Source: an uncultured Bacillota bacterium (GTDB taxonomy: Bacteria > Bacillota_I > Bacilli_A > RFN20 > CAG-288). Taken from it: 64,000 bases of DNA. The notes beneath the pieces were generated by a model. It was not told where the DNA came from. It saw nothing but the letters and a program-made list of their open reading frames with translations, and made no database searches. Position 1 is the first letter of the stretch. Every line of letters starts with the position of its first letter. The position numbers and the translations under genes are program-made. This document shows positions 30,109 through 62,443 of this stretch, piece after piece. The stretch is from the NCBI GenBank assembly GCA_949290645.1, contig CASESG010000004.1, forward strand, positions 10,821 to 74,820, in the 5' to 3' direction.

Positions 30109-32835
30109 TCAGGCGATGACTGTCGTCGCTCCCTTTCTCCAGACGCCCAAGGTCGAATCGAACTGCAAAGAAGCAATCGGAGCATAGAGGCTACGATTCC
30201 CGGAAGACCAATCCTGGGCAGGAGTTTGTGAAATCGTCCTTGTGAAGTAATCCCACGTCACCGTTTGCGTCTGAGTGCCAAACGATGAACCCGAAATGCT
30301 TCCGGTATTGTCATCTCCCGTATAGGTCCACCCGGAATCGCTCGTCCCCTCGTCGATATGCTTTGTCAAGGAAATGGTGCCGATTCTCGAATAGGAGGAA
30401 ATGCCGGAAAAACGAGTGATGTCCGCCGGGTAATACCCCGTCGTCCCCGAAGTGTAGGAGACAGAGGAAAACAGGCTCATGGAGGAAATCGTCACAGATT
30501 GATTCGTCAAATAGTTCGTTGTCGTGTTTTCCGTCACAGAATATTCTGTCGGCATTGGACTGAAATCTCCCCAAGGGCCATGAACAATACCAAATGAAGT
30601 ACGATTCCTTGAAGCCGTGCCTTTCTCTCCGTCTCCCACCCATGTCTCCATGCTTGAGCGCACCGAAATGGTATAGGTCGTCGAATCGTTCGAGACCGGA
30701 TAGAAGTTACGTGTTGAAGAACTGTATTGGTTGTCATAGACATAGGCCGCATATGCATCGAACGTCGCCGTCGGATCAGGCACTTCGACCTGCTGGCCCC
30801 GATAGTAGGCATAATACTGGGTCGCTGTCCGGGCAAGGTGATCCTCCGACACATAGGATTCGATGGGAGTCATCGTCCCACTCATCGGACTTCCCGAGTC
30901 TGTCACATAGATATATTGGTTTTGGCCGACGGAATACACGCCTGTCCGATAGTCGTATTCCGTCTCTCCATTCGTCAAGGTGGAATCGATGTCTTCCGAG
31001 CGAAAGACGTGATAGGGGGAATCGGAAGATGAATCGTCGTTGACCATCAGGGGAACAATGAGGTACTCGTGAATCGATGATTCGAGCATGTCCTTGATGC
31101 TTCCCCCTAAAAGCGTACCGATAGCGGATCCAAGATCGATGTCTCCTCCCATATAAGAAAAGGGAATGGCGCGGGAAACGAAGGTGTCGAAAGAGGATGC
31201 GTTTCCGTTCAAATAGTCTTTTGTCGATTCGGAAAGATTCATCATTCCGGCAAGGGGATGCCCCTCCCCATCAGCCTGAATGGAACCGCCGATGGTGACG
31301 CGCGGATTCTTCTGCACGTTTCTTTCCGTTTCCTCAAGCTCATATTTCTGGTAGCGGGATCGGGTAAAATTGTAATTCGCCTTGCTATAGCCATAAAACG
31401 CCGTTGATGAATCGACTGGAAGTTCGGAAAGAACGATCAGCCCTCCTTTTGAAGTCCCTTTCTCTATGTCCACTTCGACATCTCCGAATGTAGGAATGAC
31501 GACGTTGCTGTCGAAATCGCGGCTCGTCAATCGCACCAGACTCCCTTCTTCCGTCATGACCGTGGCCCCTGGACTCAAAAGCAAAGTCAACGGAAGGGTC
31601 AAGTCGCAGTCCTTTCGAACCCTGAAATGATAGTAAGAAGGAATGTAGAAAGAAAACTGCGACATTTCAATATTGGCAGTCATCTCAAGTCCGGAAAAGG
31701 TCAAGGTTGTATTCAATGTCATGCTTTCGACAGTGACGGAACCATAAAAATCGTATTCCACGCGATGATTCGCTTCATAGGAATTGACAGCATCTGTCGA
31801 ATCCGAAAGGTTGTTATAACCATCCCGGACAATCACAGAATCCGCGGACGTCAGATTGAAGAGGGATCCCGATGGCCCTAACACGTTCATCTGCGTCTTC
31901 GTCATCATGGACTGCGCATAAAGCATCGTCGCCCCAGTCAGAACCGCTCCATGACGAAACCGGATCGAACAGCTGAGGTAGGGCATCGAATAGGTCGAAA
32001 AGGGCATCGTGGAGAAGGCCGCCCTTCCGACCGTCGGTCCGCCGCCACCATAGTCTTCGACGACAAATCCCGCGTAGATGGTTCCGGAGCAGTCGACTTC
32101 TCCAATGTGCTGCCCGTCGATCTTGCTCGTGGCGGAGTCGAGAAGATATCCGTAGGCATTCATCGTCGCTCCCGACTGAATCGTCAGCGTATGTCCGTTG
32201 AGATCGAGGGCGACGAAGCTCCCTTCGATGACACAGCCCGCGTTTCCGCCACCCGAACTCGATCCGACAAGGGCTCCGATGCTGAGAATGCCGCCGCTGG
32301 TCACAGTGACATCCCCCGCCAGTCGAATCGTATAGAGCCGGGCGGGACGAGAATCGTAATTCTGATCGTAATAATAGTTGATGGGACGGGCCGAATTCGT
32401 CGTCGCCCCTCCATCGGCCGCCGTGGTGGCAAAGCCTCCGTCTTCGGTCGGGCTCTTTCCCAGGAAGTCGTCGATTCCATAGTCGATGTCGTTTTGCCGA
32501 TGGGTGAAGTGAACAGGAGAGGAAATCTCCAGGACTTCCCCGGGCCTCCCCAAGGAAATCACCCGATTGTCTTCGTCGTATTGTGAATCGTTGTAGACAC
32601 CCGAATAGTCTCCCGACGCCGCATTCGTCTTGCTGTCATAGATGTAGCTTGGATTCGTTCCCGTCTTGTTTTCCAAGAAAGTCGTCAAGTCGCTTGGCAC
32701 AAATTCGACATAGTCCTCGTTGCTTGGAGCCTGTGCTGTCCCGTTGATGATCCACGTCGAGAAACCGACGGCAATCAAGAAGAACGTCAGAAAGGAAAGC
32801 AGGAAGGCCGAACGGATCTTCCGTGTCCTCTTCAT
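30109..32835 (-). CDS. Large secreted/anchored protein (908 aa) with the operon-specific N-terminal motif (AVGFSTWIING); paralog of 34328..37000
   Basis: Start was re-picked at ATG 32835 (MKRTRKIRSAFLLSFLTFFLIAVGFSTWII), an ATGA overlap with the upstream gene. Shares blocks with the 890-aa protein: LDLNGH.LTI.S, YG.L.DS, DYGGGG, PF..YSMPYL.C..R, and a C-terminal FDS.L..W. Confidence 0.85.
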   Translation of the reverse strand: MKRTRKIRSAFLLSFLTFFLIAVGFSTWIINGTAQAPSNEDYVEFVPSDLTTFLENKTGTNPSYIYDSKTNAASGDYSGVYNDSQYDEDNRVISLGRPGEVLEISSPVHFTHRQNDIDYGIDDFLGKSPTEDGGFATTAADGGATTNSARPINYYYDQNYDSRPARLYTIRLAGDVTVTSGGILSIGALVGSSSGGGNAGCVIEGSFVALDLNGHTLTIQSGATMNAYGYLLDSATSKIDGQHIGEVDCSGTIYAGFVVEDYGGGGPTVGRAAFSTMPFSTYSMPYLSCSIRFRHGAVLTGATMLYAQSMMTKTQMNVLGPSGSLFNLTSADSVIVRDGYNNLSDSTDAVNSYEANHRVEYDFYGSVTVESMTLNTTLTFSGLEMTANIEMSQFSFYIPSYYHFRVRKDCDLTLPLTLLLSPGATVMTEEGSLVRLTSRDFDSNVVIPTFGDVEVDIEKGTSKGGLIVLSELPVDSSTAFYGYSKANYNFTRSRYQKYELEETERNVQKNPRVTIGGSIQADGEGHPLAGMMNLSESTKDYLNGNASSFDTFVSRAIPFSYMGGDIDLGSAIGTLLGGSIKDMLESSIHEYLIVPLMVNDDSSSDSPYHVFRSEDIDSTLTNGETEYDYRTGVYSVGQNQYIYVTDSGSPMSGTMTPIESYVSEDHLARTATQYYAYYRGQQVEVPDPTATFDAYAAYVYDNQYSSSTRNFYPVSNDSTTYTISVRSSMETWVGDGEKGTASRNRTSFGIVHGPWGDFSPMPTEYSVTENTTTNYLTNQSVTISSMSLFSSVSYTSGTTGYYPADITRFSGISSYSRIGTISLTKHIDEGTSDSGWTYTGDDNTGSISGSSFGTQTQTVTWDYFTRTISQTPAQDWSSGNRSLYAPIASLQFDSTLGVWRKGATTVIA

Positions 32836-33505
32836 GCTGCCACCTCCTGTGCCATCATCGTCATCGAGAAGGAAAAGGTGCCATCCGTCAGAAAGGAGAA
32901 GAGCGTCTCGTCGAAATGCTGGAAGGTATAACGGACGAAATACTCCCCCTCCGAGGCAGGGACGGTCCAATCCGTCGAGATGTCGATGGAATACCGGCCG
33001 TCTTCTGCTGTCGCCTCGAAGGCAAAGGAGGGAATCTCCGCCATGGCGACGGACGATTGGTCGACAGAGGAATAGACCCAAACGACAGGGGAGAGATACG
33101 ATTGGTTTTCATTCACCTGGAGAGAGAGTTCGTATCGCCCGTCCTCACCCAGAGCAATCATCCGCGGAGAGGACGTCTGATAGTTCAGCCTTCCCTGAAG
33201 CACGTAATCGTAACCGTCCAACGTTCGATCGATCGAAAGCGGAATGTCCAGATGTCCGACGCTTCCGTTCAGAAAACCGGCAATCGAAAAGCGGACAGGC
33301 TGGACGTCGCCGATCGTCAGGCAATCTCGGATGTCCAGGACACCATCCGCTTCGACAGGAACGGTCGCACTCTGCGGACGGCTTTCCCCGTCTTGAATGA
33401 CCCAGCTGGAAAAGCCGACGGCAAAAAGGGTCAAAACACTAAGAACCTGCACCCCCCCCCCGCAAGGAAGAGCCGATGGCGTCGAACCCAGCGATTCAGT
33501 TTCAT
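32832..33505 (-). CDS. Small secreted protein with the GFSSWVI motif; 5' end interrupted by a poly-G(10) tract (candidate phase-variable gene, OFF frame in this sequence)
   Basis: ATG 33505 lies 4 nt after the lgt stop and encodes MKLNRWVRRHRLFLAGGG. After the G10 run it falls out of frame with VQVLSVLTLFAVGFSSWVIQDG... A run of 11 or 8 G would restore the frame. The track ORF uses a GTG inside the run (33452). Confidence 0.7.
33452..33461. repeat. Homopolymeric C10 (G10 on the coding strand) inside the 5' coding region
   Basis: Read directly: a cccccccccc g at 33451-33462. Confidence 0.95.
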
Positions 33506-33509
33506 GTTG

Positions 33510-34325
33510 CTATGATACTCCATTGTCCCCTGATTGCGAAACGCAATTTTCTTCCGCCGACTGCGTGAGCGTCTCTTCAAACTCCCTCAGAATCCTCTGC
33601 CCGCAATCCTTCCTCCTTCGATTCTGAACGTGAAGGACCACGATCCAGACGGTCGCGCCGACGATCTGGCCCAAGGAAAGAAGGTGACTGACCGAAAGGG
33701 GACCGACCACATTGGTTCGATGGCGAAGGAATTCCAGACCAAAGCGAAGAATGCTATAACCCAGGAACGTAGACAGGAAGGTCTCTCCCGGAAGAAGCCT
33801 CTTCTTCAGGAAAAGGAAGAAGATCAGGGCGAAGAGAAGCAGGTCCAATCCCGCCTCCAAGGGCTGGACCGGAAACAGTCCGTCCTGCACACCGTTGGTG
33901 ATGCCCCAGCCGACCGGAATCCCGTAGCAGCACCCCGTGCACATGCATCCGATGCGATAGAAGGCCAGTTCAATCAAGATACCCGGGGCAAGGAAATCCA
34001 TCAGGCGATAGAAACTCGTCTTCATGACCAAGGAAAGCAGGAAGAGGAAAATCGGCGTGAAGTAGAAGACCCCATAGAGAGAATATCCGCCCGACCAAGA
34101 GATAGGTTCGCCAAAGGCGGAGGGATTCTCCAGGTAGAACATGATCTTTGCCCCAAAGATCTCCAGGATGATCATCATCCCGCCAAGGAGCAAGGCCGTA
34201 TACCATCGATATCCGTACCATTTGTGGACAGCAACGTATTCCGCAAGGCAGAGGACGATGCCGATGCCCCAGAAGAAGACGGAGGAAGAGATGGAAAAGG
34301 AACCAAAGGAAATCTCCGGCAGCAT
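33510..34325 (-). CDS. lgt: Prolipoprotein diacylglyceryl transferase (Lgt family)
   Basis: Polytopic membrane protein with Lgt-like blocks: YSLYGVFYF, FYRIGCMCTGCCYGIP, FPVQPLEAGLDLLLF, ILRFGLEFLR. ATG 34325 lies 2 nt after the TAG of the upstream gene. Confidence 0.7.
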   Translation of the reverse strand: MLPEISFGSFSISSSVFFWGIGIVLCLAEYVAVHKWYGYRWYTALLLGGMMIILEIFGAKIMFYLENPSAFGEPISWSGGYSLYGVFYFTPIFLFLLSLVMKTSFYRLMDFLAPGILIELAFYRIGCMCTGCCYGIPVGWGITNGVQDGLFPVQPLEAGLDLLLFALIFFLFLKKRLLPGETFLSTFLGYSILRFGLEFLRHRTNVVGPLSVSHLLSLGQIVGATVWIVVLHVQNRRRKDCGQRILREFEETLTQSAEENCVSQSGDNGVS

Positions 34326-34327: not shown

Positions 34328-37000
34328 CTATGCCCTCACCCAACGATTCAAGGAGGAATCAAATTTGACTGCTGTCTTCTGCGTTGTGTCGGTAAGCCTG
34401 GAGCAATCCGCCTCTCCTGTCGAGTCCGTAGATGAAGAAAACTTGCAATACATCCCTGCAAAGAAGATATATTGTTCCCCATTTTCATCTTGATATACTG
34501 GCAACGCAGAATCTTTCGTAACTTTCAGCAAAGAGCAGGAGCCATCTTCCCTTGGTGCAGAAGAATAGGATTTAGTCGATTCTATGACGTAATGAGAGCC
34601 GTTGAACAACATCTCTCCTGTTCGAGAATCAAAAGTACCAACCACGCCATCAGTATCTGTCGCATTCTGATAATAGCAAAGTCCATTAGAAACGAGAGGG
34701 AGGCTGTATCCTTTGCAAAAATATGTTTTATAAGGAAAACCAGTGACACTGCCTAGCATCGTCGAAAAATAATAGGTCGAGATAGATGTTGTGCCTAAAC
34801 TGTCCGAGACGAGTTCCGTGAACGGATTCTCTCGCTCCTCATAATCGACATAGGTCAATGCAGATAAATCGTCAGAATAATACGCAACACGATTAAAGTT
34901 GATGTTCCCGGCAAGAATATATGGAGAAGAATTGCTGCCCGCATTTCCCTGTCGAATCGCCAACGTTCCATAGATTGAGATTCTTGGAGAAGAAAAGTAT
35001 TTTGCAAAAGCTTCCGAACGCCGATACTGACGTCCTTGACTTCCTTCCCCTCCATCCATGTAATCGTTATTAACGAATTTCTCGTATTGTGAATCGTAAT
35101 AATAGAAATTATTTCCTAATGCGAGAACTTGCGCACTACGTTGGCCATTGTAAGAAAGAGAAACGACACTATTTTCATCGGCAAAGAAGCTTGATCCCGG
35201 CATGAATTTGATTCTCTGTGAGATGACGATTGTCGAAGACCGGAGCATGATGTCAAAGAATCCAGAAATCGGGAAAATGAATTCGCTGGTGTCAATTGGC
35301 ACGGAAATGGTGAATTTCAACGCATTCATATTACATTGGACATTGTTGAGCTGGATTTCCATCCTTTTTGAAAGCACCGCTTGCCGATCTGCGTCTGTCA
35401 TTTTTGGGTCTTCTTCCATAGCCTTATGAGAATATCCGTAAATGTCAACGGACGATTCGGACTGAGGATTAGAAATGGAGAAAAGAAAAGAATCTCCCCC
35501 TTCGGGGCCAATGAAATTCAGGACAATTTCCGTCTGACTTGAGCCCATGTAGTTTATATGTGCAAGAGCAAGAAACTGGCCAAAAGAGTTATTGCTGTCA
35601 GTTTCTAATCTTACGTGGCATCGAAGATAAGGCAACGAATAAACTTCAAAAGGAAAGCATTTATCACTTCCGGAAACCATTCCAGAAGTCGCTCCTCCGC
35701 CACGATAATCCTGGATCGTCGCCAACGTTTGAATCGATCCACCCTTGACAAAAATTGTTCCTGTCCCTTTTGAATCTTTGATCAAGCCATAGGAGAGCAG
35801 GCTTCCTGTTGAATTGATTGTGATATCGTGTCCATTCAAGTCGAGGCAAACATATTCATTCGTAATGAGGCCATTTGCTGCTTGTGAATTCGCTACGCCA
35901 TAGTTTGATCCAATGACCAACGTTCCATCAATAACCATATCTTCCTGCAGAACAACCTTGTACTGCAGTTCGTGAGCGTCATTCTCTGGCTCGAAATTAC
36001 TGAATGATGTCGTTGTAGCATCCTTCTTTATGCTTCCGTCATTCAGTCCAAAGTTGATGGTGACACCCTCGTGAATCGTTGTTGCATGCGTCAAGAAGAC
36101 CGCCTTGTCCCCTTCAAAGTAAGACAAGTCATTCTTGACGTTTTCGCTCCCTTGCGCCGCTTGGGCGTTAAAGGTCTTTACACCGGTCTGAGTACTTGTA
36201 ATCGTATCGGAGAGATTGTTTTTATAGTCAGACAAATCGTTGTCACTATTTAGGACAAGATAATATGAAGAATCGCTTTCGATGGTCGTATCTTCAGAGA
36301 GGAAACTATCGCTCGGCAAAGGATTATCTTCCGCATCATAAACCGTTTCCTTGAACCCGACAAAAGTGTATCCGGAGGAAACGTCGCTGAGATGGTCCAT
36401 GATCATGCTTCTCGCATCGGAAAGGGGATTCCCCAAGTTGAGATTTGTGGAGAACTTGATGTCCGTTTCATATGAATAATGATACTTATTTTCTTCTATC
36501 TGTTGTTTCGAAATCTTATATGTTCCGGAATACGTATCACCACAGACCCCCTCTGTAAATGAAATGCTCTCGGTAACATTGACAATAATATAGTAGCCAG
36601 ACCAAGTATCTATCCCGAAATACTGATAAGGACCTTTAGTTAAATCTCCAACTGTTTTTCCAGTCAAAGTCTGCATCAAACTTTGAAAGTTCTCATATGA
36701 AGACGAGCTGTCCGTGGAATATTCTGTTCCGAGCTCGTAGTTGGTTCCATTGACCACACCCAGCGCTTCCTCTGAATGGGTGATGACTTCCATTCCATCG
36801 CAAATCTGATAGCGGAAATCGACCTTGACCTTCTCCTTGTCCTCCGTCTCTCCGCTCGTTGCCGTGGAATCGGAGGTGTCGACGACCGGATCGTCGACGA
36901 CGAAGGTCGCGTATCCGACCGCGACGAAGACGCCGAGCAGAAGGGAGAAGACGGTCAGGGTCTTCCAAAGAGGAATCTTTTTCGTTTTCTTGTTTTTCAT
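34328..37000 (-). CDS. Large secreted/anchored protein (890 aa) with N-terminal motif (AVGYATFVVD); paralog of 30109..32835; AT-rich core
   Basis: GAGGAGG RBS. N-terminus MKNKKTKKIPLWKTLTVFSLLLGVFVAVGYATFVV. For shared blocks see the paralog. Codon usage from about 34440 to 36720 is A/T-ending, unlike its neighbours. Confidence 0.85.
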   Translation of the reverse strand: MKNKKTKKIPLWKTLTVFSLLLGVFVAVGYATFVVDDPVVDTSDSTATSGETEDKEKVKVDFRYQICDGMEVITHSEEALGVVNGTNYELGTEYSTDSSSSYENFQSLMQTLTGKTVGDLTKGPYQYFGIDTWSGYYIIVNVTESISFTEGVCGDTYSGTYKISKQQIEENKYHYSYETDIKFSTNLNLGNPLSDARSMIMDHLSDVSSGYTFVGFKETVYDAEDNPLPSDSFLSEDTTIESDSSYYLVLNSDNDLSDYKNNLSDTITSTQTGVKTFNAQAAQGSENVKNDLSYFEGDKAVFLTHATTIHEGVTINFGLNDGSIKKDATTTSFSNFEPENDAHELQYKVVLQEDMVIDGTLVIGSNYGVANSQAANGLITNEYVCLDLNGHDITINSTGSLLSYGLIKDSKGTGTIFVKGGSIQTLATIQDYRGGGATSGMVSGSDKCFPFEVYSLPYLRCHVRLETDSNNSFGQFLALAHINYMGSSQTEIVLNFIGPEGGDSFLFSISNPQSESSVDIYGYSHKAMEEDPKMTDADRQAVLSKRMEIQLNNVQCNMNALKFTISVPIDTSEFIFPISGFFDIMLRSSTIVISQRIKFMPGSSFFADENSVVSLSYNGQRSAQVLALGNNFYYYDSQYEKFVNNDYMDGGEGSQGRQYRRSEAFAKYFSSPRISIYGTLAIRQGNAGSNSSPYILAGNINFNRVAYYSDDLSALTYVDYEERENPFTELVSDSLGTTSISTYYFSTMLGSVTGFPYKTYFCKGYSLPLVSNGLCYYQNATDTDGVVGTFDSRTGEMLFNGSHYVIESTKSYSSAPREDGSCSLLKVTKDSALPVYQDENGEQYIFFAGMYCKFSSSTDSTGEADCSRLTDTTQKTAVKFDSSLNRWVRA

Positions 37001-37011: not shown

Positions 37012-37686
37012 TCATTCACGGCTTGTCGCCAATCCGAAGGTGATCTTGATTGTTGGAAAGGCCATATCGTCCGATTCCAGCAGATCCTTGTTGACGTTGG
37101 ATATCGTGAAGCGAAAGACCAGGGGGACCTGGTAGACTCCGTTTCGCGGATAGCTCGAATCGAGGGATGCCAGGGAGCAGAGGGACATGGCCTTTCGGCT
37201 TTCGACAGGAAAGTAGAACTGCGTCGTGTCGGCATTGTTCTCTTGGCAGATGGTTTCGGAGCGAGTGGCAGGAAAATCGTAATGATCGTAGTTTTCGGGA
37301 TAGACCATCAGTTCTTCGACGATGTTATTGAGGGTGCTCGCATAGCCCTGGTATTGGAACACCACCCGAAGGTCGGCGTCCTCGAAGGCCGAATGGTCCT
37401 TGTCCAGGTCGAGCGTCGCCTTGAGGGAGAAAAAGACGTCGCCCACGTATTCCGACGTCACGGAAGAAGTGTTATCTTCAAACGTCACGTACTGGAACGC
37501 CTCGAAGGAGTCCGGGACGATCTCGAAGCCGACGTCTTCCAGTCCGACGGTCGTGGTCACGACGTCGTCGGCCGAGACGGGAATCTCGACCCGTTCGCTC
37601 TCGCCGATGACCCATGTGGAAAAGCCCAGGCCAGCGATGCTGGCCGTACAAAGGCCGATGACGGTTGCCATCTTCCACTTCTTCAC
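37012..37686 (-). CDS. Small secreted protein (224 aa) with the GFSTWVI motif
   Basis: A GTG start at 37686 forms a GTGA overlap with the upstream stop. N-terminus (M)KKWKMATVIGLCTASIAGLGFSTWVIGE. The track ORF is over-extended to 38109. Confidence 0.8.
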   Translation of the reverse strand: MKKWKMATVIGLCTASIAGLGFSTWVIGESERVEIPVSADDVVTTTVGLEDVGFEIVPDSFEAFQYVTFEDNTSSVTSEYVGDVFFSLKATLDLDKDHSAFEDADLRVVFQYQGYASTLNNIVEELMVYPENYDHYDFPATRSETICQENNADTTQFYFPVESRKAMSLCSLASLDSSYPRNGVYQVPLVFRFTISNVNKDLLESDDMAFPTIKITFGLATSRE

Positions 37687-38825
37687 AACTCGACCTCCCA
37701 ATGGGCATAGAGAGTCAGCTGACTTCCGTAGACGGGTGTCAGGTCGGTAAACTTGCCGCTGAAGGCGTTCTCCTCTGGAGAAGTATACCATCCCGAGAAC
37801 GTCGATCCTTCCCGGGTCGGGATTCCGACCGTCTCGAAGCTGTTCTCCCCCGTCAGGGGAATGTTGGTCCCGACTTCCAGGGAATCGAGATAGCGGAAGT
37901 TGGATCCGTCCGCAAAGGTTCCGCCGTTGGCGTTGAAGTAGATGGTGCAGTACTCCGTGGTCGTGGTTCCGCCCGTCCCCTTCATCGTGAAGATTGGATT
38001 GCCCCAGCCGCTTGTTCCCTTGCAGTAGACTTCTCCCGTCGTGGTGTTGAGATAATAGTCTCCCTCGTTTCCGATCGATGAGGAGGGAGCGACGTCTCCG
38101 TAGTACCAACGGGTCGACTGCGGACGCGGCAGGCGCAGGATGTCCGTCCTGCCGTCGCTATAGGAGATGATCAATCCATAGTAGTCATCGTCTGACTGGG
38201 CATCCGAGAGGAATATCGTCTCGATTCCAGCGCCATCTTCACTCGGTGGAATCGAGATGACGGTTGGTTCCCTTCCATCGGTATAGGTGATGGTGACCTG
38301 ATAGTTTCCTGTCGCTTCATCGATGACATAGGAAATGGTGTCAATCCCGACTCCATCCTTTCCGTCGGTCGCCTTGGGAATGGTGATCTCCGAGGTCGTC
38401 CCATCGGTGTAGGTGAACGTCAGGATCGTGTTTCCTGTCTCCTCGTCCTGACGGACGTCGACCGAGGCGATTCCCCTTCCCGCCTCGCCCTGAAGGACGG
38501 GGAAAGAGAGGATGGTCGGCTCGACGCTCTCGTCCGTATAGGTGATGGTAAGGACGACCGAATCGCCTTCCATCGCCGTCTGAACGTCCGCGATGCCGAC
38601 GCCGTCTTTTCCGCTCATTCCGGCGGGAAGGGTGACGACGAGGGGAGCGACGCTCGAATCGGTATACGTGATCGTCAGGATCGTGTTTCCCTCTGCGTCC
38701 GTCCCGCTCTGGACGTCCTGGATGAGATAGCCGTCGCTGCCGAAGATGAAGGAGCAGGAGGAAAGGGTCGGTGCCATCGTCAGCAGGCCGAGCGTGAGAA
38801 GCATCTTCGAAAAGGTTCGTTTCAT
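37683..38825 (-). CDS. Lipoprotein with five roughly 38-aa G-x-D-G-x-G-I...TITYTDG repeats and a C-terminal Listeria-Bacteroides (Flg_new) repeat domain
   Basis: AGGAGG RBS. MKRTFSKMLLTLGLLTMAPTLSSC gives a lipobox. The repeats are visible by eye. The C-terminus YCTIYFNANGGTF...GSTFSGWYTSPE...LTLYAHWE is Flg_new-like. Confidence 0.8.
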   Translation of the reverse strand: MKRTFSKMLLTLGLLTMAPTLSSCSFIFGSDGYLIQDVQSGTDAEGNTILTITYTDSSVAPLVVTLPAGMSGKDGVGIADVQTAMEGDSVVLTITYTDESVEPTILSFPVLQGEAGRGIASVDVRQDEETGNTILTFTYTDGTTSEITIPKATDGKDGVGIDTISYVIDEATGNYQVTITYTDGREPTVISIPPSEDGAGIETIFLSDAQSDDDYYGLIISYSDGRTDILRLPRPQSTRWYYGDVAPSSSIGNEGDYYLNTTTGEVYCKGTSGWGNPIFTMKGTGGTTTTEYCTIYFNANGGTFADGSNFRYLDSLEVGTNIPLTGENSFETVGIPTREGSTFSGWYTSPEENAFSGKFTDLTPVYGSQLTLYAHWEVEL

Positions 38826-38841: not shown

Positions 38842-39939
38842 TCAGGCAACATCATACCACGCATAGAGCTGGAGATCCCTCAGGACCGGAGTCGTGTCGT
38901 CGAAGCGACCGGCGTTGGGATCGTAGGTCGGAGAGGTGTACCAGCCCAGGAAGAGGTCGTCTCCTCGCTCGGGGATTCCGATCTGTTCGCCGAGGATCCG
39001 CCGGGAAAGCCTTTCGCCTTCCTGGACGAAGTAGGAGACGCTTTCCGCGCCCGAAGGCAGGCTTCCGCCCTGGGCGTCGAAGGTCACGGAGTAGTAGTCG
39101 GGCTCTTCCTCCGCGGCATAGCCGTCGATGGTCAGGAGGAAGGTCCACCCCGCCTCCTCCTTGGCATAGAAGTCTCCGGACTGGATGTCGAGGTAGAAGT
39201 CCCCCACCTCGCCTTGGGAGGGCGAAGGCTCTCCCATTCCGCGCCACCATTCCTGGGCGCGGCCGTAGGGGAGTGGAAGGTCGAACGTGCTTCCGTCGCT
39301 GAGGGTGAAGGTATAGACGCAGGAAGTGGAAGTCACTTCCGTGATCTCGACATGGTCGATCGTGACGCCGTCCCTGCCGTCGGGAAGGAAGAAGACCGTA
39401 TCCGGAGAGCCGTCCTGGTAGTGCAGGACGACCCTCGTTCCGCCTTCCTCTTCCGTGACCTCGAAGGAGGAGATGAGGTGCGTCGCATCCACTCCGTCCT
39501 CGCCCTTGGGAAGGAGGAGGGAGGGACTTTGCGTGCCGTCGGAATACTCGAAGACGAGATTCGTTCCGCCCGTCTCCTCGTCCGTGGAGACGACCAGTCC
39601 CGTAACCAGCCGTCCTTCCTCGCCTTGGGCGTTGGGGACGCGGAAGACGACGTCGTCCCTTCCCGTGAGGGAGATCGTGATCACGATCTCCTCTCCCTCG
39701 ACCTGGGCCGTCACGTCCTCGATCGTCGCCCCGTCCGCTCCAGAAGCGGCGCCGGGAAGGCTCAGGACGAAGTCGGGACGGACGCCGTCCTGGAAGGAGA
39801 GGACGACCTGCTGGTTCCCCTGCCCGTCGACTGTGGTCGACACGTCCTCGATCAGCGCCCCCTGACTCGACCCGAAGAGGAGCGAGCAGGAGGAGAGAAG
39901 GAGGGCCAGAGACGGCAGGAAAAGAATTCCCTTCTTCAT
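38842..39939 (-). CDS. Lipoprotein, paralog of 37683..38825 (G-x-DG repeats plus Flg_new domain)
   Basis: MKKGILFLPSLALLLSSC gives a lipobox. Repeats include GADGATIEDV...ITISL and GEDGVDATHL. The C-terminus is YSVTFDAQGGSL...FLGWYTSP...LQLYAWYD. ATGA overlap with the upstream gene. Confidence 0.8.
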   Translation of the reverse strand: MKKGILFLPSLALLLSSCSLLFGSSQGALIEDVSTTVDGQGNQQVVLSFQDGVRPDFVLSLPGAASGADGATIEDVTAQVEGEEIVITISLTGRDDVVFRVPNAQGEEGRLVTGLVVSTDEETGGTNLVFEYSDGTQSPSLLLPKGEDGVDATHLISSFEVTEEEGGTRVVLHYQDGSPDTVFFLPDGRDGVTIDHVEITEVTSTSCVYTFTLSDGSTFDLPLPYGRAQEWWRGMGEPSPSQGEVGDFYLDIQSGDFYAKEEAGWTFLLTIDGYAAEEEPDYYSVTFDAQGGSLPSGAESVSYFVQEGERLSRRILGEQIGIPERGDDLFLGWYTSPTYDPNAGRFDDTTPVLRDLQLYAWYDVA

Positions 39940-43960: not shown

Positions 43961-44784
43961 TCCTTCTCCTCCTCCACGTCGAACTGGCGGAAGATCTCCT
44001 TGAGCCTTCTTCTTTCCATCGGCTGCTCGCGGAAGTCGATCGAGCGCTTGATGATGCCGCTGTCGAGGATTCCGACCCGGTCGCAGATCTTGGAGACGAA
44101 GTCGATGTTGTGGGAGGTCAGGAAGATCGTCCTTCCGTTGGCCTTGAGATCCTTCATCAGGTTGAAGAGCATCTCGTTGACGACAAGGTCGAGACCGACC
44201 GTCGGCTCGTCCAGGATCCAGATCCTCGGATTGTGGATCAGGGAGGCGATGAGGCAGATCTTCTGCTTCATGCCGTGGGAATACTCGCGAATTCTCTTCT
44301 TCAGGTCCTGGTCGTTGAAGCGAAGGCGGGTGGCCAGAAGATGATAGTTGGTGACGAACTGGTTCTGCTTGACCCCATAGGCACCGGCGACGAAGGAGAG
44401 ATATTCCTTTCCGGTCATGACCTCGTAGGCCGTCGGTTCGCTGGCGACATAGCCAAAGCATCTCTTGGCTTCCTCAGGCGAAGCAAGGACATCGTTTCCG
44501 AAGATCTCGATCGTCCCTTCCTGGAACGACTTGAGACCGACCATGCAGTCGATGGTGGTCGACTTTCCGATGCCGTTTCTTCCGATCAAGCCGAAAGCCT
44601 CACCCTCCAGGACAGAGATGTCGACTCCCCGGAGCACCTCAAAGGAGCCATAGGACTTCTTCAAGCCATGGATCTGGATAGCCGTCTCCTTCTCCTTCTC
44701 GAGCGGAAGTCCTTCTTCCTTCCTGGAGATCGACTCTTCGGTAACGGGCCTTGTGCCCTTGAGCATCTTTGTCAGTGGATTCAT
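43957..44784 (-). CDS. ABC transporter ATP-binding protein
   Basis: Walker A GRNGIGKST, signature YSHGMKQK, Walker B IWILDEPTVGLD. Start was re-picked at ATG 44784 (ATGA overlap). Confidence 0.9.
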   Translation of the reverse strand: MNPLTKMLKGTRPVTEESISRKEEGLPLEKEKETAIQIHGLKKSYGSFEVLRGVDISVLEGEAFGLIGRNGIGKSTTIDCMVGLKSFQEGTIEIFGNDVLASPEEAKRCFGYVASEPTAYEVMTGKEYLSFVAGAYGVKQNQFVTNYHLLATRLRFNDQDLKKRIREYSHGMKQKICLIASLIHNPRIWILDEPTVGLDLVVNEMLFNLMKDLKANGRTIFLTSHNIDFVSKICDRVGILDSGIIKRSIDFREQPMERRRLKEIFRQFDVEEEKE

Positions 44785-46163
44785 CGAGACCTCCAAAGGC
44801 CCTTGAGCCAGACCAGGACCTTTCCGCGATTCTCGATCACGGAGAGGAAGGCGTGGCAGCTCGGGCAATAGTATCCGTCCTCCCTCTTGCTCAGATGGGC
44901 GTTGTGGCAGACAGGACAGCTGTAGTCGAAGGAATGACCCTCGTCGAACAAGAGGAACAAGGAGGCGAGGTAGTTTCGCATCCTTTCCTTGGATGCCCTC
45001 TCACCCGGAACAAGGACAAGGACATGGTCCTGTCTCTTCTCCTCGAGAAGGGACATCGTCGCCAAGGTGACATCGTCGACCTTCCGCTCCCGGACTTCCC
45101 GGAAGAGGGAAGAGACTTCTTCCTCTTTCACCAAGGGAAGGACCTTGAGCAGGCGGTCGGAGGAGGAGAGAGTGGCGTTGTTCTCCCTATCGAGAAGGAC
45201 AGATCGCAAAAGATAGCCGTCCTTGCGCTCGTAGAGGGAGAGGGTGAGATTCTTTCTCCTTGCGAAGAGACACTGGAAGCGGACTTCTCCCTCCTCGACA
45301 CGATAGCCGTAGGGAGTCAGCTCAAAGCCCTCTTCCGCGAGCTCCGAGAGAAGAGAGAGCAGGACGAAGGAGCGATATCCTTTCTCCTCTTTCTTCCCCT
45401 CCTCGTTTCTCTTTCTCAGCTCGTCGACATAGAAGCGGTAGCAATAGGAATAGAGAGGATGGTGAATCAGGACGTTCGTCGCCTGGATCTGTCCCTTGAT
45501 GGGGAACAGGACCAGGTCGTGATAGAACTTGCTGTTCTTCAGGCGCTTGAGATAGGTCAAGGCCTGATGGAGCAAGAGGTCGACATCCTCTTCCTTCTCG
45601 ATGACAGAGCGGTCGTCGAGATAGGGAACCTTGAGGTCGAAGCGGGAGAGCAGGTCCGTCGGCTCATAGCTGAGCCTCTTGTCCTTCCCGTAGTCGAGAA
45701 GAGAGCCTTCCCTTCTTCCAAAGAGATGGATCAAGTCGTGGATCTCACGGTCGACCATGTCGATCAGCATGCAGAGGAAGCGGTTCTCGTAGGTGTTGTC
45801 GACATCGATCTTCTCCGTCGAGTGGACCAGCTCCGGAACCATCGACCCGTCCTTCTTGCGAGACCAGAAGGAAGGCTCGCGGACCGTCTTCCGGAAATCC
45901 TCTTCCGATAGAGGACCCGAGACCTCGACCCTCTTGACTTCCTCTTCCCGGGAAGTGACGATGGCCGGATTCATGACGATGGAGAGGATGCGAGTCAATA
46001 AGGCGACCAGTTTCCTCGTCCAGGAGAGAAGCTTCTTGGGATCTTCCTTTCGATAGAGGTCGACCTTGCCCGTCTTTTCAAGGGAAAGGAGATGGAAGAA
46101 GTTCTTCTCCCCTTCCATCGAGACCAGCTGACGGTGGAGTTCGGACAAAAGCTGTTCTCTCAC
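44781..46163 (-). CDS. McrC/DUF2357-like partner protein with a C-terminal Zn-ribbon and no evident PD-(D/E)xK nuclease motif
   Basis: Lies directly downstream of the McrB-like gene (GTG 46163 is 1 nt after its TAA). The TYENRFL motif is recalled from DUF2357/McrC-like proteins. The C-terminus is CPVCHN...CPSCH. No D...(D/E)xK block was seen by eye. Confidence 0.45.
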   Translation of the reverse strand: MREQLLSELHRQLVSMEGEKNFFHLLSLEKTGKVDLYRKEDPKKLLSWTRKLVALLTRILSIVMNPAIVTSREEEVKRVEVSGPLSEEDFRKTVREPSFWSRKKDGSMVPELVHSTEKIDVDNTYENRFLCMLIDMVDREIHDLIHLFGRREGSLLDYGKDKRLSYEPTDLLSRFDLKVPYLDDRSVIEKEEDVDLLLHQALTYLKRLKNSKFYHDLVLFPIKGQIQATNVLIHHPLYSYCYRFYVDELRKRNEEGKKEEKGYRSFVLLSLLSELAEEGFELTPYGYRVEEGEVRFQCLFARRKNLTLSLYERKDGYLLRSVLLDRENNATLSSSDRLLKVLPLVKEEEVSSLFREVRERKVDDVTLATMSLLEEKRQDHVLVLVPGERASKERMRNYLASLFLLFDEGHSFDYSCPVCHNAHLSKREDGYYCPSCHAFLSVIENRGKVLVWLKGLWRSR

Positions 46164-46164: not shown

Positions 46165-47979
46165 TTAGAGCCTCTTGATGAGCTTGCCGACGTTGTGACG
46201 CGTCAGCGGGAACTTCTCCTTTCCGTACGTCTCGTCGATCAGATCCAGAAGGTCGAGAAGACCCTGGCGGACATAATCCTCGAAACGGCCCTCGAGCTTG
46301 TAGAGGACCTTGCGGGCAAAGAGGAAGTCAAGCGCGTCTTCCTTTGTTCCTCCGCAGCTGACATAGACCGGGACAAGGATCTCGATCTGGTTGAGGACAC
46401 GGTTACCGAAGGTGATGTCGAAGGTGTCCGAGAGGAAGGAGATGAGCTTGGCGAAGCGGGCGAAGTCCTCCTTCGTCAGGCGATTGCTCTCGGTCGAGAG
46501 AGCCTTGGCATAGAGGGCGTTGAGTCCCTTATAGGTCAGATGGATCGGAGCGACCTCTCCCTCGACCTCGAAAGGTTCGTTGCGGTCGTCGAAGGAAATC
46601 GTGATGGCACGGTCATAGACCTTGTCGGTGATGGTGTAGGTCGAGTCGTCCTTGTTGGCCGTTCCGATGAACCAGGTGTTCTCCGGGATCTTCAGGACGC
46701 CGTTCTCGAGATGGCTGGGCCCCTCGAATTCATAGGGAACCTGAAGGATGCGGAGCTTCCACTTGTCGATCGGGTATTCCATGATGGAGAGGAAGTCGGC
46801 GAAGTAGTATTCGACACGGGAGATGTTGACCTCGTCCAGGACCATGATGTTGATGTCGTTGGGGCGATAGGTCATCTGATACAGACGCTTGAGGAAGTCC
46901 GTCTCGTTGTACTTGCGGGAGAAGTCGTTGAAGAAGCCGAGCAGGGAAGTGCGGTCTCTCCAGGAAGCCTGGACCGGCTCGAAGAAAGATTCCTCTCCGA
47001 TGTATTCGGAGAAGTAACGGGCCAAGGAAGACTTACCCGTTCCCGAGAGGCCTTCCAGGATCAACAGACGGCTGGCCGCCATGCCCGAGAGGAAGGCGCG
47101 GATCGTGTCGATGGAGAAGTAGAGACCCTCGTTCTTCGCCAAGTAGCGACGGAAGTCCTCCGAGATCTCCCTGAGGGAGAGAGTCGTCTCGCTCTGGTTG
47201 AGCGGAGTCCTTGTCTCCTCGACCTCGTCGATCGTGCAAAGGCCAGGGAAGACATATTCCTTGGAGCCAAGCTCCGCTTCCGTCTGCTCGTCCTTCTCCT
47301 CCCCGTCCAGAGAGTTCGTCAGGTTGGAAAGGGCCGAGGAGGAAGGCCCCAAGGCCGAAGCCAGGGACAATCCATCGGCCGAGGCCAGAGTCGGTTCCTG
47401 CTTGTTATCCTGCTCATCGTCGATATCTTCCGTATCCTCGCCCTTGTTGAAGCGGAAGGGCTTGTCGATGTTGCGGAAATTGACGACCATCATGCAGAAG
47501 AAGAGAATCGGCAAGGCCAGGACGACGAAGAGCAGAGTGCCGATCAAGAGAGACTCGCCGAAGAAGAGGAAGCTGTTTCCGATCGCTCCCTCGCCCCTTC
47601 CGATCTGAGCCAGGAAGGAAAGGCCCAGCCAGAGAACGGCGCCTCCGAAGAAGGTCAAGGAGTAGATCAGGATCCACTTGGGAGTGAACAGCTTCTTTTC
47701 ATAAAACATGGCCAGGCGCATCTCGTAGATCAAGGCGCCGGCACAAAGGAATGCGTACACGCAGAACAGTCCCAAGACCATCCAGCCCTCGAAGCTGACC
47801 GATACCGAAGGAAGCTTCAGCATGGAAAACAGCACCTTCCGGAGCGGGCTGTTTTCGCTGATCAGGGCATTTCCCGTGTCGGCGAAGAATCCCGAGCCAG
47901 CCACGAACAACAGATAGAAGAACAGCAACGACAGGAAGATGTAGTTCTTCCTTGTAAAATGAGTCTTTCGTTTCTTCAT
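46165..47979 (-). CDS. Membrane-anchored McrB-family AAA+ (AAA_5) NTPase
   Basis: The N-terminal 170 aa or so contain 4 TM helices, followed by an acidic linker. The NTPase core reads LEGLSGTGKSS (P-loop), VLDEVNISRVEYYFADFLS (Walker B / McrB signature), WFIGTANKDDST, DKVYDRA. GGGAGG RBS; ATGA overlap with the sipW stop. Confidence 0.75.
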   Translation of the reverse strand: MKKRKTHFTRKNYIFLSLLFFYLLFVAGSGFFADTGNALISENSPLRKVLFSMLKLPSVSVSFEGWMVLGLFCVYAFLCAGALIYEMRLAMFYEKKLFTPKWILIYSLTFFGGAVLWLGLSFLAQIGRGEGAIGNSFLFFGESLLIGTLLFVVLALPILFFCMMVVNFRNIDKPFRFNKGEDTEDIDDEQDNKQEPTLASADGLSLASALGPSSSALSNLTNSLDGEEKDEQTEAELGSKEYVFPGLCTIDEVEETRTPLNQSETTLSLREISEDFRRYLAKNEGLYFSIDTIRAFLSGMAASRLLILEGLSGTGKSSLARYFSEYIGEESFFEPVQASWRDRTSLLGFFNDFSRKYNETDFLKRLYQMTYRPNDINIMVLDEVNISRVEYYFADFLSIMEYPIDKWKLRILQVPYEFEGPSHLENGVLKIPENTWFIGTANKDDSTYTITDKVYDRAITISFDDRNEPFEVEGEVAPIHLTYKGLNALYAKALSTESNRLTKEDFARFAKLISFLSDTFDITFGNRVLNQIEILVPVYVSCGGTKEDALDFLFARKVLYKLEGRFEDYVRQGLLDLLDLIDETYGKEKFPLTRHNVGKLIKRL

Positions 47980-50445: not shown

Positions 50446-50583
50446 AGTGTTCTCCTTTATGTCTATAGCCAATATAAGATTAGGATACATTTGACCGCTG
50501 GAATCGTCAAATCGCTTTCAAGCTCGAAGACAGATAATGACGCGGCTTTTCGGCCAAGATTGTAAAATTTCCAGAAATCCAGA

Positions 50584-50592
50584 CCCCCCCCC
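50584..50592. repeat. Homopolymeric C9 (G9 on the operon strand), about 140 nt upstream of the first operon gene
   Basis: Read directly: aga ccccccccc gac at 50581-50595. No ORF crosses it. Confidence 0.95.
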
Positions 50593-51372: not shown

Positions 51373-51735
51373 TCAGTTCTGGCTTCTCTTCCGGTCGTTG
51401 TAGATGTCCTCATCCTTCTCGGAGACATGCTCCAAACCCGTCCGGAAGAGATCCTTGATGTGGTTGTCCGTCAAGACATAGAGAACCTGCTTCCCCTTTC
51501 GATAGTAGGTGACGATGTCATGCTTCCGAAGGACCTGGAGCTGGTGAGAGACACGGCTCTGGGAGAGATTGAGGATCTCCGAGATGTCGTTGACACAGAG
51601 CTCATGCTTCAAAAGCAAAGAGACAATCGAGAGCCTTGTCGCATCCCCGAAGATGGAGTAGAAGGAAGAGAGTGTCTCAATGCTCTTTGCGGAAAGAAGC
51701 TGATCCTGAATCGTCTTTTTCGTTTCGTTGTCCAT
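51373..51735 (-). CDS. ArsR/SmtB-family transcriptional regulator
   Basis: Winged HTH FGDATRLSIVSLLLKHELCVNDISEILNLSQSRVSHQLQVLRKHDIV. Start was re-picked at ATG 51735 (MDNETKK). Confidence 0.8.
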   Translation of the reverse strand: MDNETKKTIQDQLLSAKSIETLSSFYSIFGDATRLSIVSLLLKHELCVNDISEILNLSQSRVSHQLQVLRKHDIVTYYRKGKQVLYVLTDNHIKDLFRTGLEHVSEKDEDIYNDRKRSQN

Positions 51736-62435: not shown

Positions 62436-62443
62436 GCAATCAA

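Follow-up and report, generated by a model that had tools for sequence, protein, structure and literature searches.

A low-GC, mosaic gene body between conserved arms in a predicted surface protein of a Candidatus Enterosoma-like bacterium

The P4 operon and its predicted products

The gene P4 encodes a protein of 890 aa and occupies positions 34,328-37,000 of the window, the whole 64-kb stretch of DNA that was analysed. P4 and the other genes and gene segments whose coordinates are given here lie on the minus strand. Directly upstream is a 219-aa partner gene (37,012-37,671) that encodes an N-terminal anchor with a GFSTWVI motif. Its stop codon falls 11 nt ahead of the P4 ATG, and GGAGG is present in the gap. 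On the other side, the lgt gene for prolipoprotein diacylglyceryl transferase (33,510-34,325; Pfam PF01790, E = 2.8e-23) starts 2 nt past the P4 stop codon and is 97-100% identical among strains. The operon also includes an ABC-type ATPase and two lipoprotein genes. One encodes 380 aa with an LSSC lipobox and a Listeria-Bacteroides repeat (37,683-38,825; matches to Pfam PF09479 and TIGR02543), and the other 365 aa with an LLSSC lipobox (38,842-39,939). A distant paralogue of P4, named P6 (30,109-32,835), carries the anchor motif of P4 and a C-terminal FDxxLxxW motif, and it is accompanied by a small partner gene (32,832-33,452; 206-229 aa) with a GFSSWVI anchor motif. Scans of the window yielded no tRNA genes and no Rfam matches, and a promoter and terminator scan gave nothing beyond chance.

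The host can be placed from the window itself. The pyruvate:ferredoxin oxidoreductase (PFOR) of the window clusters at 90% with that of Candidatus Enterosoma merdigallinarum (Bacillota/Bacilli). The genus Candidatus Enterosoma has been assigned to RFN20, family CAG-288 (PMC8035907), and the family is predicted to be peptidoglycan-deficient (PMC10868615). The host is thus a Candidatus Enterosoma-like member of the order RFN20, and as such predicted to be wall-less.

P4 is divided into a 5' arm (codons 1-63; 36,812-37,000), a low-GC hypervariable body (codons 64-882; 34,356-36,811) and a conserved 3' end with the motif SLNRWVRA and the stop codon (34,328-34,355). The 5' arm has a host-like composition and is 95.8-100% identical among conspecific strains. 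The part of the protein that it encodes has a Lys-rich N-terminus, a membrane helix at residues 11-28, and an acidic, disordered Ser/Thr linker. The body encodes a beta-rich ectodomain and comprises at least four modules: module I with the N-terminal domains (36,380-36,811), module II, where the conserved core begins, with an LDLNGH motif (35,700-36,379), module III (35,140-35,699), and module IV with the C-terminal domains (34,356-35,139). Invariant residues of the P4 family cluster in module II, and the C-terminal SLNRWVRA motif is kept across the whole family. The homology between P6 and P4 (28% identity over ~290 residues, E = 3e-18) also lies in the module II region.

An AlphaFold2 model of P4 has a pLDDT of 76 and a pTM of 0.73. 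It contains the helix at residues 11-28, gives a pLDDT below 50 for residues 1-54, and places beta-rich domains from about residue 57. Short beta domains make up its C-terminal 220 residues, which end in the conserved FDxxLxRWVRA motif. The predicted topology would comprise a short cytoplasmic tail, the single N-terminal helix, the disordered linker, and an ectodomain of ~830 residues. P4 belongs to a small, uncharacterised family, and the model gives it a membrane-anchored, beta-rich ectodomain. It is not a lipoprotein candidate, as its first Cys is residue 67 and no L-x-x-C follows the hydrophobic stretch. The N-terminal helix, the large ectodomain, the operon with lipoproteins and lgt, and the predicted wall-less host suggest that P4 is exposed at the cell surface. 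Pfam and NCBIfam scans assigned neither P4 nor P6 to a family (the sole match was DUF5626, below threshold), and a profile search of PDB sequences with P4 gave no matches. A Foldseek search of the P4 model against PDB and BFVD returned no match with E ≤0.001. Since the search yielded weak beta-helix-type matches alone, no fold is assigned to P4.

Composition of P4 in the window and in related lineages

The interval 34,440-36,720, which the first-pass annotation had singled out as an AT-rich gene body behind a host-like 5' end, has a G+C content of 0.423 versus 0.530 over the entire window. The G+C counts made by hand at the time (0.350 at 34,441-34,500, 0.383 at 35,101-35,160 and 0.650 at 36,841-36,900) were exact, and the shortage of long open reading frames in the body was correctly seen: besides P4 itself, none of at least 100 aa lies within 34,493-36,693. 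GC3 is 0.47 for the whole of P4 and 0.66-0.86 for the rest of the operon. The step in GC3 was located by a maximum-likelihood change point with a permutation test (500 permutations). The best change point is codon 63 (position 36,811), with a GC3 of 0.79 in codons 1-63 and 0.45 in the later codons (Fisher p = 7e-8; the observed likelihood ratio was reached in 0 of 500 permutations). A CAI-like index trained on 14 host-like genes from the window gives codons 1-70 a value of 0.685 and the remainder 0.36, with host genes at 0.56-0.80. A compositional break is therefore present inside P4 as proposed, with both of its edges displaced. The 5' boundary moves from 36,720 to ~36,790-36,811, and the 3' boundary from 34,440 to ~34,356, about 28 nt ahead of the stop codon. 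Both borders of the body fall within coding sequence, with the 219-aa partner gene and lgt as flanking genes. With no tRNA gene in the window, these borders give no sign of mobility of the integrase, tRNA or direct-repeat kind. The first codon position of P4 is low in GC too (GC1 0.45), which points to a long exposure to AT pressure. P6 is intermediate in composition (GC3 0.61), as the first reading had it.

The window allele (W) was compared with related loci, all of which come from metagenome assemblies. They comprise conspecific loci (L001, L006, L007, L010, L021 and L023) and loci of related lineages (L003, L005, L008 and L011). P4 is found at the same operon position in nine of the nine related loci that have the operon, and its distribution is not patchy. 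The same operon with a low-GC P4 body is present in L001, L003, L005, L006, L007, L008, L010 and L011. The syntenic P4 orthologues of the related lineages share 77%, 51%, 51% and 45% aa identity with the window P4, and neighbouring genes across the compared lineages are 42-76% identical. In L003, L005, L008 and L011, GC3 of P4 is 0.29-0.42 versus 0.6-0.8 in neighbouring genes, and most of the four also have the higher-GC 5' end. The L005 homologue of the 219-aa gene is low as well (GC3 0.44), and L008 has a graded low-GC zone, with a GC3 of 0.29 in P4, 0.42 in lgt and 0.55 in a 235-aa gene. The pair formed by the partner gene and P4 is kept in all loci, including those in low-GC genomes (~34% GC), where it has the native composition; in one of them, L009, the two genes encode 223 and 878 aa. 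These low-GC homologues were the sole matches in a contig scan of genomes, where their MAG labels are inconsistent and one is labelled Clostridium sp. CAG:568. The P4 alleles of high-GC hosts are 41-57% identical to each other and 34-38% identical to the low-GC-genome homologues. The composition had been attributed to recent exchange, and the same low GC3 in the four related lineages contradicts this. A low-GC body in every related lineage examined, with no drift to host composition, indicates a lineage-wide property and not a recent replacement.

Relations among P4 alleles are incongruent from one species to another: the aa identity of L011 and L003 is 85-91% for the 380-aa, 219-aa and lgt products but 51% for P4. 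At the nucleotide level, their identity is 0.84-0.98 in the flanks and 0.31-0.71 in the P4 body, and the breakpoints fall at nt 145-175 and ~2,700 of 2,748. The case for P4 exchange between species comes mainly from L011. The window and L003 share 77% aa identity in P4, above any neighbouring gene. A recent transfer of a class-A allele between the two was considered and set aside as unproven, with a P4 nucleotide identity (67-77%) near that of the flanks (67-74%). On these identities, the relationship is compatible with plain vertical descent.

Diversity of P4 within the species

The body had been described at first as a cassette-like, diversifying part of a surface protein, and the comparison of conspecific strains bears this out. 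The comparison covers five distinct P4 alleles, all from metagenome assemblies in which chimeric joins are possible. Within the species, nucleotide diversity (pi) is 0.08-0.33 in the P4 body and 0.00-0.04 in the flanks. It rises at ~36,800, at the GC boundary, and drops to 0.000 at or just after the P4 stop codon. At the base level, the breakpoints among conspecific alleles lie at ~36,790 and 34,356, and all of these alleles are identical from TCCTTGAATCGTTGGGTGAGGGCATAG onward.

The alleles are mosaics. Module I occurs as two types within the species: identity is 94-100% among W, L001 and L007, and L006 and L010 reach 68-75% to these three. In module II, W, L001, L006 and L007 are 99-100% identical, and L010 stands at 70-80%. 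Module III is 98-100% identical among W, L006 and L007, with L001 at 73-87% and L010 at 52-63% to these. Module IV is 93-100% identical among W, L001 and L006, with L007 at 68-89% and L010 at 49-65%. This pattern of identities shows that at least four internal modules have been reassorted among the strains carrying W, L001, L006 and L007. Two further loci, L021 and L023, join a W-type 5' arm (100%) to an L006-type body (99.7%), so that hybrid alleles exist and one cassette is found in different backgrounds, as expected of a cassette locus. The W allele itself recurs in at least 10 contigs. L010 and L006 are 0.95-1.00 identical in the flanks and 0.40-0.65 in the 3' part of the body, and identity returns to 1.00 about 25-40 nt ahead of the stop codon. 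L010 is thus divergent from both L006 and W between flanks of 95-100% identity. In this conspecific allele and in L011 of a related lineage (compared with L003), the body is mostly or wholly replaced, at ~50-65% nucleotide identity between flanks of 87-100%. Chimeric assembly joins are unlikely to explain such alleles, since they switch twice and return to flanks of the same species.

The variation is old and is not a burst of new mutation. Synonymous divergence (dS) is 0.11-0.41 in the P4 body versus 0.005-0.14 in the flanks, and dN/dS in the body is 0.12-0.38. Values of dN/dS stay under 1 throughout, so that positive selection leaves no direct signal. The equilibrium GC3 implied by synonymous polymorphism is 0.38 in the body, compared with 0.69 in the flanks, and the body has no surplus of AT-to-GC changes. 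An implied equilibrium this low means that the body gives no sign of amelioration.

A second variable block lies in the 5' part of the 365-aa lipoprotein gene (39,407-39,903). It is 62-82% identical to L001 at the nucleotide level between flanks of ~99%, and has a pi of 0.17-0.20, a dS of 0.33 and a GC of 0.62-0.70. Given this host-like GC, hypervariability alone cannot account for the low GC of P4. A tblastn search with nine family members against the 64-kb window for silent P4 cassettes, as in antigenic variation of the pilE/pilS, vlsE or MgPa type, recovered P4 itself and the distant P6 core, and nothing else. An ORF-poor, low-GC island at 50.5-55.2 kb was considered as a site of degraded P4 copies and rejected; its contents are a gene of the RhuM family and an HTH gene. 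The conserved 3' arm, used as an exact 28-mer query on JGI metagenome contigs, gave 0 matches and hence added no alleles.

Origin and maintenance of the low-GC body

We consider it likely that the P4 body is a long-standing polymorphic cassette, swapped by homologous recombination between conserved arms, and not a recent import. Several deeply divergent versions of the ectodomain and at least four modules would circulate within and between related species. One recombination anchor would be the host-like 5' arm, which encodes the signal-anchor and the linker, together with the upstream 219-aa gene. The other would be formed by the last eight P4 codons and lgt. The compositional step at codon 63 would then separate the conserved recombination arm from a variable cassette that has a low-GC equilibrium of its own, and would be a boundary and not the scar of a recent import. 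The variation may be maintained by diversifying or frequency-dependent selection exerted by phages or host immunity.

The low GC could instead be a matter of history, and of the competing accounts this one, although improbable, survives best. Either the Enterosoma-like lineage gained GC while P4 lagged behind, or the pair of the 219-aa gene and P4 entered the common ancestor in a single ancient transfer and never ameliorated; both variants are compatible with cassette behaviour. The native composition of the pair in low-GC genomes, the low GC3 of the L005 partner gene, the graded zone of L008 and the depressed GC1 of P4 all agree with such a history. The polymorphism spectrum, however, points to a low equilibrium and not to an upward drift, and the window has a fully host-like composition in codons 1-63 and in the 219-aa gene. 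Moreover, the lineages are deeply diverged and their synonymous sites must have turned over many times, so a passive lag in GC should be gone.

Direct selection for low GC and rare codons, independent of recombination and with hypervariability as a separate matter, seems somewhat less probable again. Such selection might act to slow the translation of a large, secreted, beta-rich protein, to cap its expression, or to allow binding of an AT-preferring silencer. The persistence of the composition over deep divergence and the low implied equilibrium GC3 would fit, as would the position of the step, which coincides with the point where the fold begins (residue ~57). Variability and AT-richness are also separable, given the host-like GC of the second variable block. 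Against direct selection, P6 has the same core and anchor and is far less AT-rich, and promoter-like sites in the P4 body do not exceed chance frequency over the region.

It is very improbable that a low-GC donor recently supplied this strain, or its recent ancestor, with a foreign body of P4 and that the GC step is the scar of this replacement. The body is atypical in GC3 and codon usage next to its host-like 5' end, as a recently acquired island would be (GC3 0.45 in the body versus 0.66-0.86 in the rest of the operon), and homologues exist in genomes in which such a composition is native. Yet every conspecific allele shares this mosaic composition, as do lineages in which the neighbouring genes have diverged to 42-76% identity, and the low-GC-genome homologues are less similar to the alleles of high-GC hosts than these are to each other. 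AT-to-GC changes are not in excess, and the window and L001 have no identity break at 36.72 kb, where a recombination breakpoint had been anticipated. The first-pass annotation had proposed that a foreign allele replaced this part of P4 while the export signal was retained; the exchangeable body and the retained anchor end stand, and the foreign import in this strain does not. Misassembly of an insert from another organism is the least credible account: the related sequences are all metagenome-derived and the window may be too, but the reading frame is unbroken over both boundaries, the operon junctions are tight (11 nt and 2 nt), an identical structure is present in independent assemblies from ENA and from Logan, and the exact Lgt of the window occurs in 11 contigs, of which the loci inspected are identical to the window over the 219-aa gene, P4 and lgt.

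A sharp compositional step within a gene need not signal recent transfer, and in P4 it would mark the edge of a long-lived, recombining polymorphism. P4 is probably the main variable surface protein, with a conserved operon, of an uncultured, probably wall-less gut lineage, and almost nothing functional is known about this host lineage. The exact arms (36,812-37,000, and 34,355 down into lgt) could be used for allele typing in metagenomes. A low-GC equilibrium that lasts over deep divergence also offers a tractable case for the question of what maintains GC heterogeneity in bacteria. A bolder and distinctly tentative proposal is that mycoplasma-like, probably wall-less gut Bacilli share across species at least five deeply divergent ectodomain cassettes (44-57% aa identity) and a set of shuffled modules for a major membrane-anchored surface protein of an undescribed family, and that the low-GC equilibrium is actively held. 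If so, with a pool at a GC3 of ~0.4 inside genomes with a GC3 of ~0.75-0.8, the locus would follow an evolutionary regime of its own, linked to variation of an antigen or phage receptor; candidates are escape from GC-biased conversion and selection for AT-rich coding.

Comparison with known surface-variation systems

The P4 locus is a mosaic locus for a predicted surface protein, of a kind already known. Type V autotransporters resemble P4 in their N-terminal signal for export and in an extracellular part that is large and beta-rich, and the passengers of EspP, EspC and SepA, together with phage tailspikes, are among the weak, non-significant Foldseek matches of P4 (probability ≤0.23, TM-score ≤0.2). 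P4 lacks a C-terminal translocator beta-barrel (PF03797 or related) and the host lacks an outer membrane, so P4 is not such a protein. The term "passenger domain" that had been applied to it is a misnomer in a Bacillota lineage without an autotransporter beta-domain.

The Mycoplasma variable surface lipoproteins (vsa, vlp, vsp) and MgPa-type systems vary within a genome by site-specific inversion, repeat slippage or silent copies. They belong to wall-less relatives and share with P4 a conserved 5' signal part, a variable body, and a presumed role in immune or phage evasion. Mycoplasma variation arises within one genome, whereas P4 varies between strains, is not a lipoprotein, and has no silent copies in the 64-kb window. 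The M protein (emm) of Streptococcus pyogenes and the pneumococcal PspA and PspC combine a conserved signal end with a hypervariable mature part and recombination mosaics. P4 shares with them the conserved signal-peptide-coding end, the variable mature portion and the segmental mosaicism. M protein, PspA and PspC are sortase-anchored coiled coils with a C-terminal anchor, whereas P4 is beta-rich with an N-terminal anchor. To our knowledge, their loci are not noted for a sharp GC step. As in P4, the O-antigen (rfb) and capsule loci known from Enterobacteria and pneumococci stay below the genome average in GC in all alleles and species, and many divergent alleles occupy one chromosomal site and are exchanged through conserved flanking genes. 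The rfb and capsule loci are multi-gene polysaccharide clusters, whereas the P4 cassette is the body of a single protein-coding gene.

The S-layer cassette of Clostridioides difficile (slpA and neighbours; SLCT types; Dingle et al. 2013, cited in PMC8809339) has divergent types that recombine via conserved flanks. Hybrid cassettes are also described, slpA variability is placed in one part of the protein, and SlpA is identified as a phage receptor (PMC8809339). Pfam, Foldseek and PDB-sequence profile searches gave no sequence or fold relationship between P4 and SlpA. SlpA has cell-wall-binding domains, whereas P4 has an N-terminal membrane anchor in a host predicted to be wall-less. slpA and P4 are alike as population-level polymorphisms of a major envelope protein gene, in which discrete, deeply divergent types are moved between backgrounds by homologous recombination. 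The unit of exchange differs: a cassette of five genes in C. difficile, and in P4 part of one gene, exchanged in modules.

Composition step within P4 and its operon

P4, an open reading frame of 890 residues (34328-37000, minus strand), changes composition sharply near its 5' end. G+C is 42.3% over 34440-36720 versus 53.0% for the window, and P4 as a whole has a GC3 of 0.47 versus 0.66-0.86 for the remaining operon genes. A two-segment likelihood scan places the GC3 change point at codon 63 (36,811), with 0.79 before and 0.45 after (Fisher p = 7e-8; observed likelihood ratio reached in 0 of 500 permutations). When 14 host-like window genes, which themselves score 0.56-0.80, serve as the training set, a CAI-like index is 0.685 over codons 1-70 of P4 and 0.36 thereafter. 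These steps confirm the AT-rich body with odd codons and the host-like 5' end described in the first-pass annotation, whose hand counts of 0.350, 0.383 and 0.650 G+C are all exact. The block it described is real, and its edges move from 36.72 and 34.44 kb to about 36,800 and 34,356. No ORF of at least 100 aa other than P4 lies between 34,493 and 36,693. P6 (30109-32835, minus strand) is intermediate, as had been noted (GC3 0.61), and is only a distant paralogue, with 28% identity to P4 across about 290 core residues.

P4 sits inside a conserved minus-strand operon. The first gene encodes a 604-aa membrane AAA-like protein (46,165-47,979, minus strand) that has four hydrophobic segments near its N-terminus and matches McrB/AAA weakly (E = 2e-4), and the second a 445-aa protein (44,781-46,118, minus strand) whose orthologue on the related contig L005 has a weak DUF2357 match; these matches hint very faintly at a McrBC-like pair. 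An ABC ATPase, a 12-helix membrane protein of 534 aa and an 807-aa protein follow. Next come two lipoproteins with an LSSC lipobox and Listeria-Bacteroides repeats, of 365 aa (38,842-39,939, minus strand) and 380 aa, and a 219-aa protein directly preceding P4. Downstream of P4 come lgt, a gene for a small protein (206-229 aa), and P6. The junctions of P4 are tight: 11 nt with GGAGG lie 5' of its ATG, and 2 nt separate its stop from the lgt ATG.

Other compositional features occur elsewhere in the window. The ORF-poor region 50,500-55,200 has low GC (0.42-0.47) and probably represents an accessory or mobile island. It encodes a RhuM-family protein (52,344-53,234; E = 5e-45), followed by a small HTH protein (54,181-54,603), and nothing in it resembles P4. 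The window's G+C minimum (0.36-0.45) is at 62,000-64,000, where an ORF at 62,779-63,426 (minus strand) with a GC3 of 0.46 has no match in Pfam. Two adjacent large ORFs of 1,071 and 1,136 aa (10,804-14,019 and 14,021-17,431, minus strand) have host-like composition and likewise lack a Pfam match.

The P4 protein and the cell surface

The P4 family is small and undescribed. Searches of Pfam, NCBIfam and PDB sequences returned no relatives, and among 1.84 billion representative proteins, searched exhaustively, only 219 relatives reached E <= 0.001 and 41 reached E <= 1e-30. With 15 homologues as input, an AlphaFold2 model (pLDDT 76, pTM 0.73) predicts a membrane helix at residues 11-28, disorder to residue 54 and beta-rich domains thereafter; the GC step coincides with the modelled start of the folded domains, at about residue 57. 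Foldseek found no significant match to the model, and the weak ones are beta-helix proteins (phage tailspikes, autotransporter passengers and pectin-lyase folds). P4 had earlier been said to have a passenger domain, and a reading as an autotransporter passenger is not supported.

An N-terminal anchor motif, G[FY][SA][ST][WF][VI], closes the hydrophobic segment in the 219-aa protein (37,606-37,671), the 206-aa protein (33,369-33,452), P4 (36,900-36,960), P6 (32,745-32,835) and homologues from low-GC genomes. P4 and P6 also share the C-terminal motif FDxxLxxW[VL]R/K. As judged from these motifs, the two ends could carry a dedicated sorting or processing signal, and the anchor segment of the four proteins may resemble SipW-type signal peptides.

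At the 90% level, the pyruvate:ferredoxin oxidoreductase encoded in the window clusters with a protein of Candidatus Enterosoma merdigallinarum. Candidatus Enterosoma corresponds to GTDB UBA7642, in order RFN20 and family CAG-288 (PMC8035907), and CAG-288 is predicted to be peptidoglycan-deficient (PMC10868615). The exposed surface of such a cell would consist of membrane-anchored proteins and lipoproteins, and P4 is likely to be surface-exposed.

Polymorphism and mosaic structure of the locus

All comparison sequences are metagenome assemblies. Only five distinct alleles of the species were recovered, those of the window and of contigs L001, L006, L007 and L010. Nucleotide diversity across these five is 0.00-0.04 in flanking genes, reaches 0.14-0.20 within the 100-nt bin 36,806-36,707, remains high (0.2-0.33 over the 3' 1.3 kb of P4 with L010 included) and falls to 0.000 at 34,331. 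The low-GC block of P4 is thus its hypervariable block. At base level, the 5' arm is conserved to about 36,790, and every allele has the same sequence from TCCTTGAATCGTTGGGTGAGGGCATAG (SLNRWVRA and the stop) on into lgt.

Four modules reassort within the body. In module I (36,800-36,380), the alleles of the window, L001 and L007 are 68-75% identical to those of L006 and L010. Four alleles are near-identical in module II (36,380-35,700), with L010 at 70-80%; L001 deviates in module III (35,680-35,140; 73-87%) and L007 in module IV (35,140-34,356; 68-89%). Two further contigs, L021 and L023, join the window's 5' arm (100%) to an L006-type body (99.7%). L010 and L006 are identical over the first 640 nt of P4, 72-85% identical over the next stretch and 40-65% over the last 1.3 kb, and regain 100% identity about 25-40 nt before the stop. 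The diversity jump at the GC edge and these hybrid and reassorted alleles bear out the proposal that the body diversifies like a cassette while the export end is kept. Between the more distant contigs L011 and L003, identity is 84-98% in the flanks, 82-91% in the first 145 nt of P4, 31-71% across the entire body, and again 84-96% from nt 2,710 of 2,748. This is precisely the pattern envisaged in the first-pass annotation. Independent assemblies contain the window's allele unchanged (11 contigs carry the exact window Lgt, and the loci read match the window fully over the 219-aa gene, P4 and lgt), and no silent P4 copy is present in the 64-kb window.

Among conspecific alleles, body dS is 0.11-0.41 versus 0.005-0.14 in the flanks, with dN/dS of 0.12-0.38. 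This marks the variation as old and imported, with no burst of new adaptive mutations. By gene, the 534-aa gene has a dS of about 0.01, the 807-aa gene one of 0.045, and the 380-aa and 219-aa genes values of 0.03-0.14, a decay away from P4 as expected near a maintained polymorphism.

Incongruence extends along the operon. L011 and L003 share 85-91% identity in the 380-aa protein, 219-aa protein and Lgt, and 51% in P4. The same three L011 proteins are 60-71% identical to the window's, and the L011 (1-10,937) 534-aa protein shares 91% identity with its window counterpart and 62% with that of L003; this mosaic reflects either between-species recombination along the operon or a chimeric assembly. 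L003 and L008 are 82-92% identical in four upstream genes and 44-60% from the 364-aa lipoprotein gene through lgt; judged from this comparison, the distal half of the operon appears to evolve or be exchanged as a unit apart from the proximal half.

A second strain-variable block (39,407-39,903) occupies the 5' part of the lipoprotein gene at 38,842-39,939 (minus strand). The window and L001 are 62-82% identical there at the nucleotide level, with flanks at about 99%, and the L001 allele is nearer to that of L011 (78.6% aa) than to the window's. Its pi is 0.17-0.20 and its dS 0.33, and its GC is host-like (0.62-0.70), unlike the P4 body; hypervariability alone is therefore insufficient to explain the low GC of P4.

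Origin of the low GC and a proposed mechanism of exchange

The first-pass annotation attributed the composition to recent replacement of the body by a foreign allele, a reading contradicted by the same low GC3 in all related lineages compared, the outcome that the annotation itself had named as refuting it. Full-length P4 homologues form a graded series on contigs carrying the same operon, and every operon-bearing contig compared has a low-GC3 orthologue: 0.46-0.48 in L001, L006 and L007 (neighbours 0.69-0.86), 0.40 in L003 (0.59-0.80), 0.42 in L005 (0.65-0.74), 0.42 in L011 (0.64-0.82) and 0.29 in L008 (0.55-0.82). In most, the first 50-75 codons are GC-richer (0.50-0.74 vs about 0.3-0.45 for the rest). 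Since deep divergence separates these lineages from the window (neighbouring genes 42-76% aa identity), the composition is lineage-wide. Homologues of about 36% identity occur in genomes of about 34% G+C, where the gene has the composition of its genome and only the pair of 223-aa and 878-aa genes is kept. Alleles of high-GC hosts are 41-57% identical to one another vs 34-38% to these low-GC-genome homologues, so no donor has been sampled. Synonymous polymorphisms in four conspecific alleles, polarised by majority rule, imply that GC3 has its equilibrium at 0.38 in the body, where 0.45 is observed, and at 0.69 in the flanks, where 0.79 is observed; in this test, crude because much of the variation is recombination-imported, the body shows no sign of amelioration toward host GC3. 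The locus carries a persistent low-GC equilibrium. The low GC also extends beyond P4 in the L005 homologue of the 219-aa gene (L005 9,312-9,986; GC3 0.44) and in L008 9,279-13,455, where GC3 is lowered in the 235-aa gene (0.55) and in lgt (0.42) as well; the edges of the AT-rich zone therefore vary by lineage. The low GC may have been retained from a low-GC RFN20 ancestry, deeply divergent alleles may have escaped a GC-favouring process that raised the rest of the genome, or AT-rich or rare-codon coding may be under direct selection in the cassette.

We propose that the ectodomain-coding body is a polymorphic cassette that would be swapped, whole or per module, through homologous recombination. 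Exchange would be anchored on one side by the conserved 5' arm (signal-anchor and linker) and the upstream gene, and on the other by the last eight codons of P4 and lgt; the GC step would then mark the edge between arm and cassette. Frequency-dependent selection from phages or host immunity probably maintains the polymorphism. P4 is a mosaic polymorphic surface-protein locus of a kind already known; its protein family is undescribed and its host lineage uncultured. Its closest analogue is the S-layer cassette of C. difficile, which is hypervariable, with 14 types and hybrid cassettes, and whose SlpA is a phage receptor (PMC8809339).
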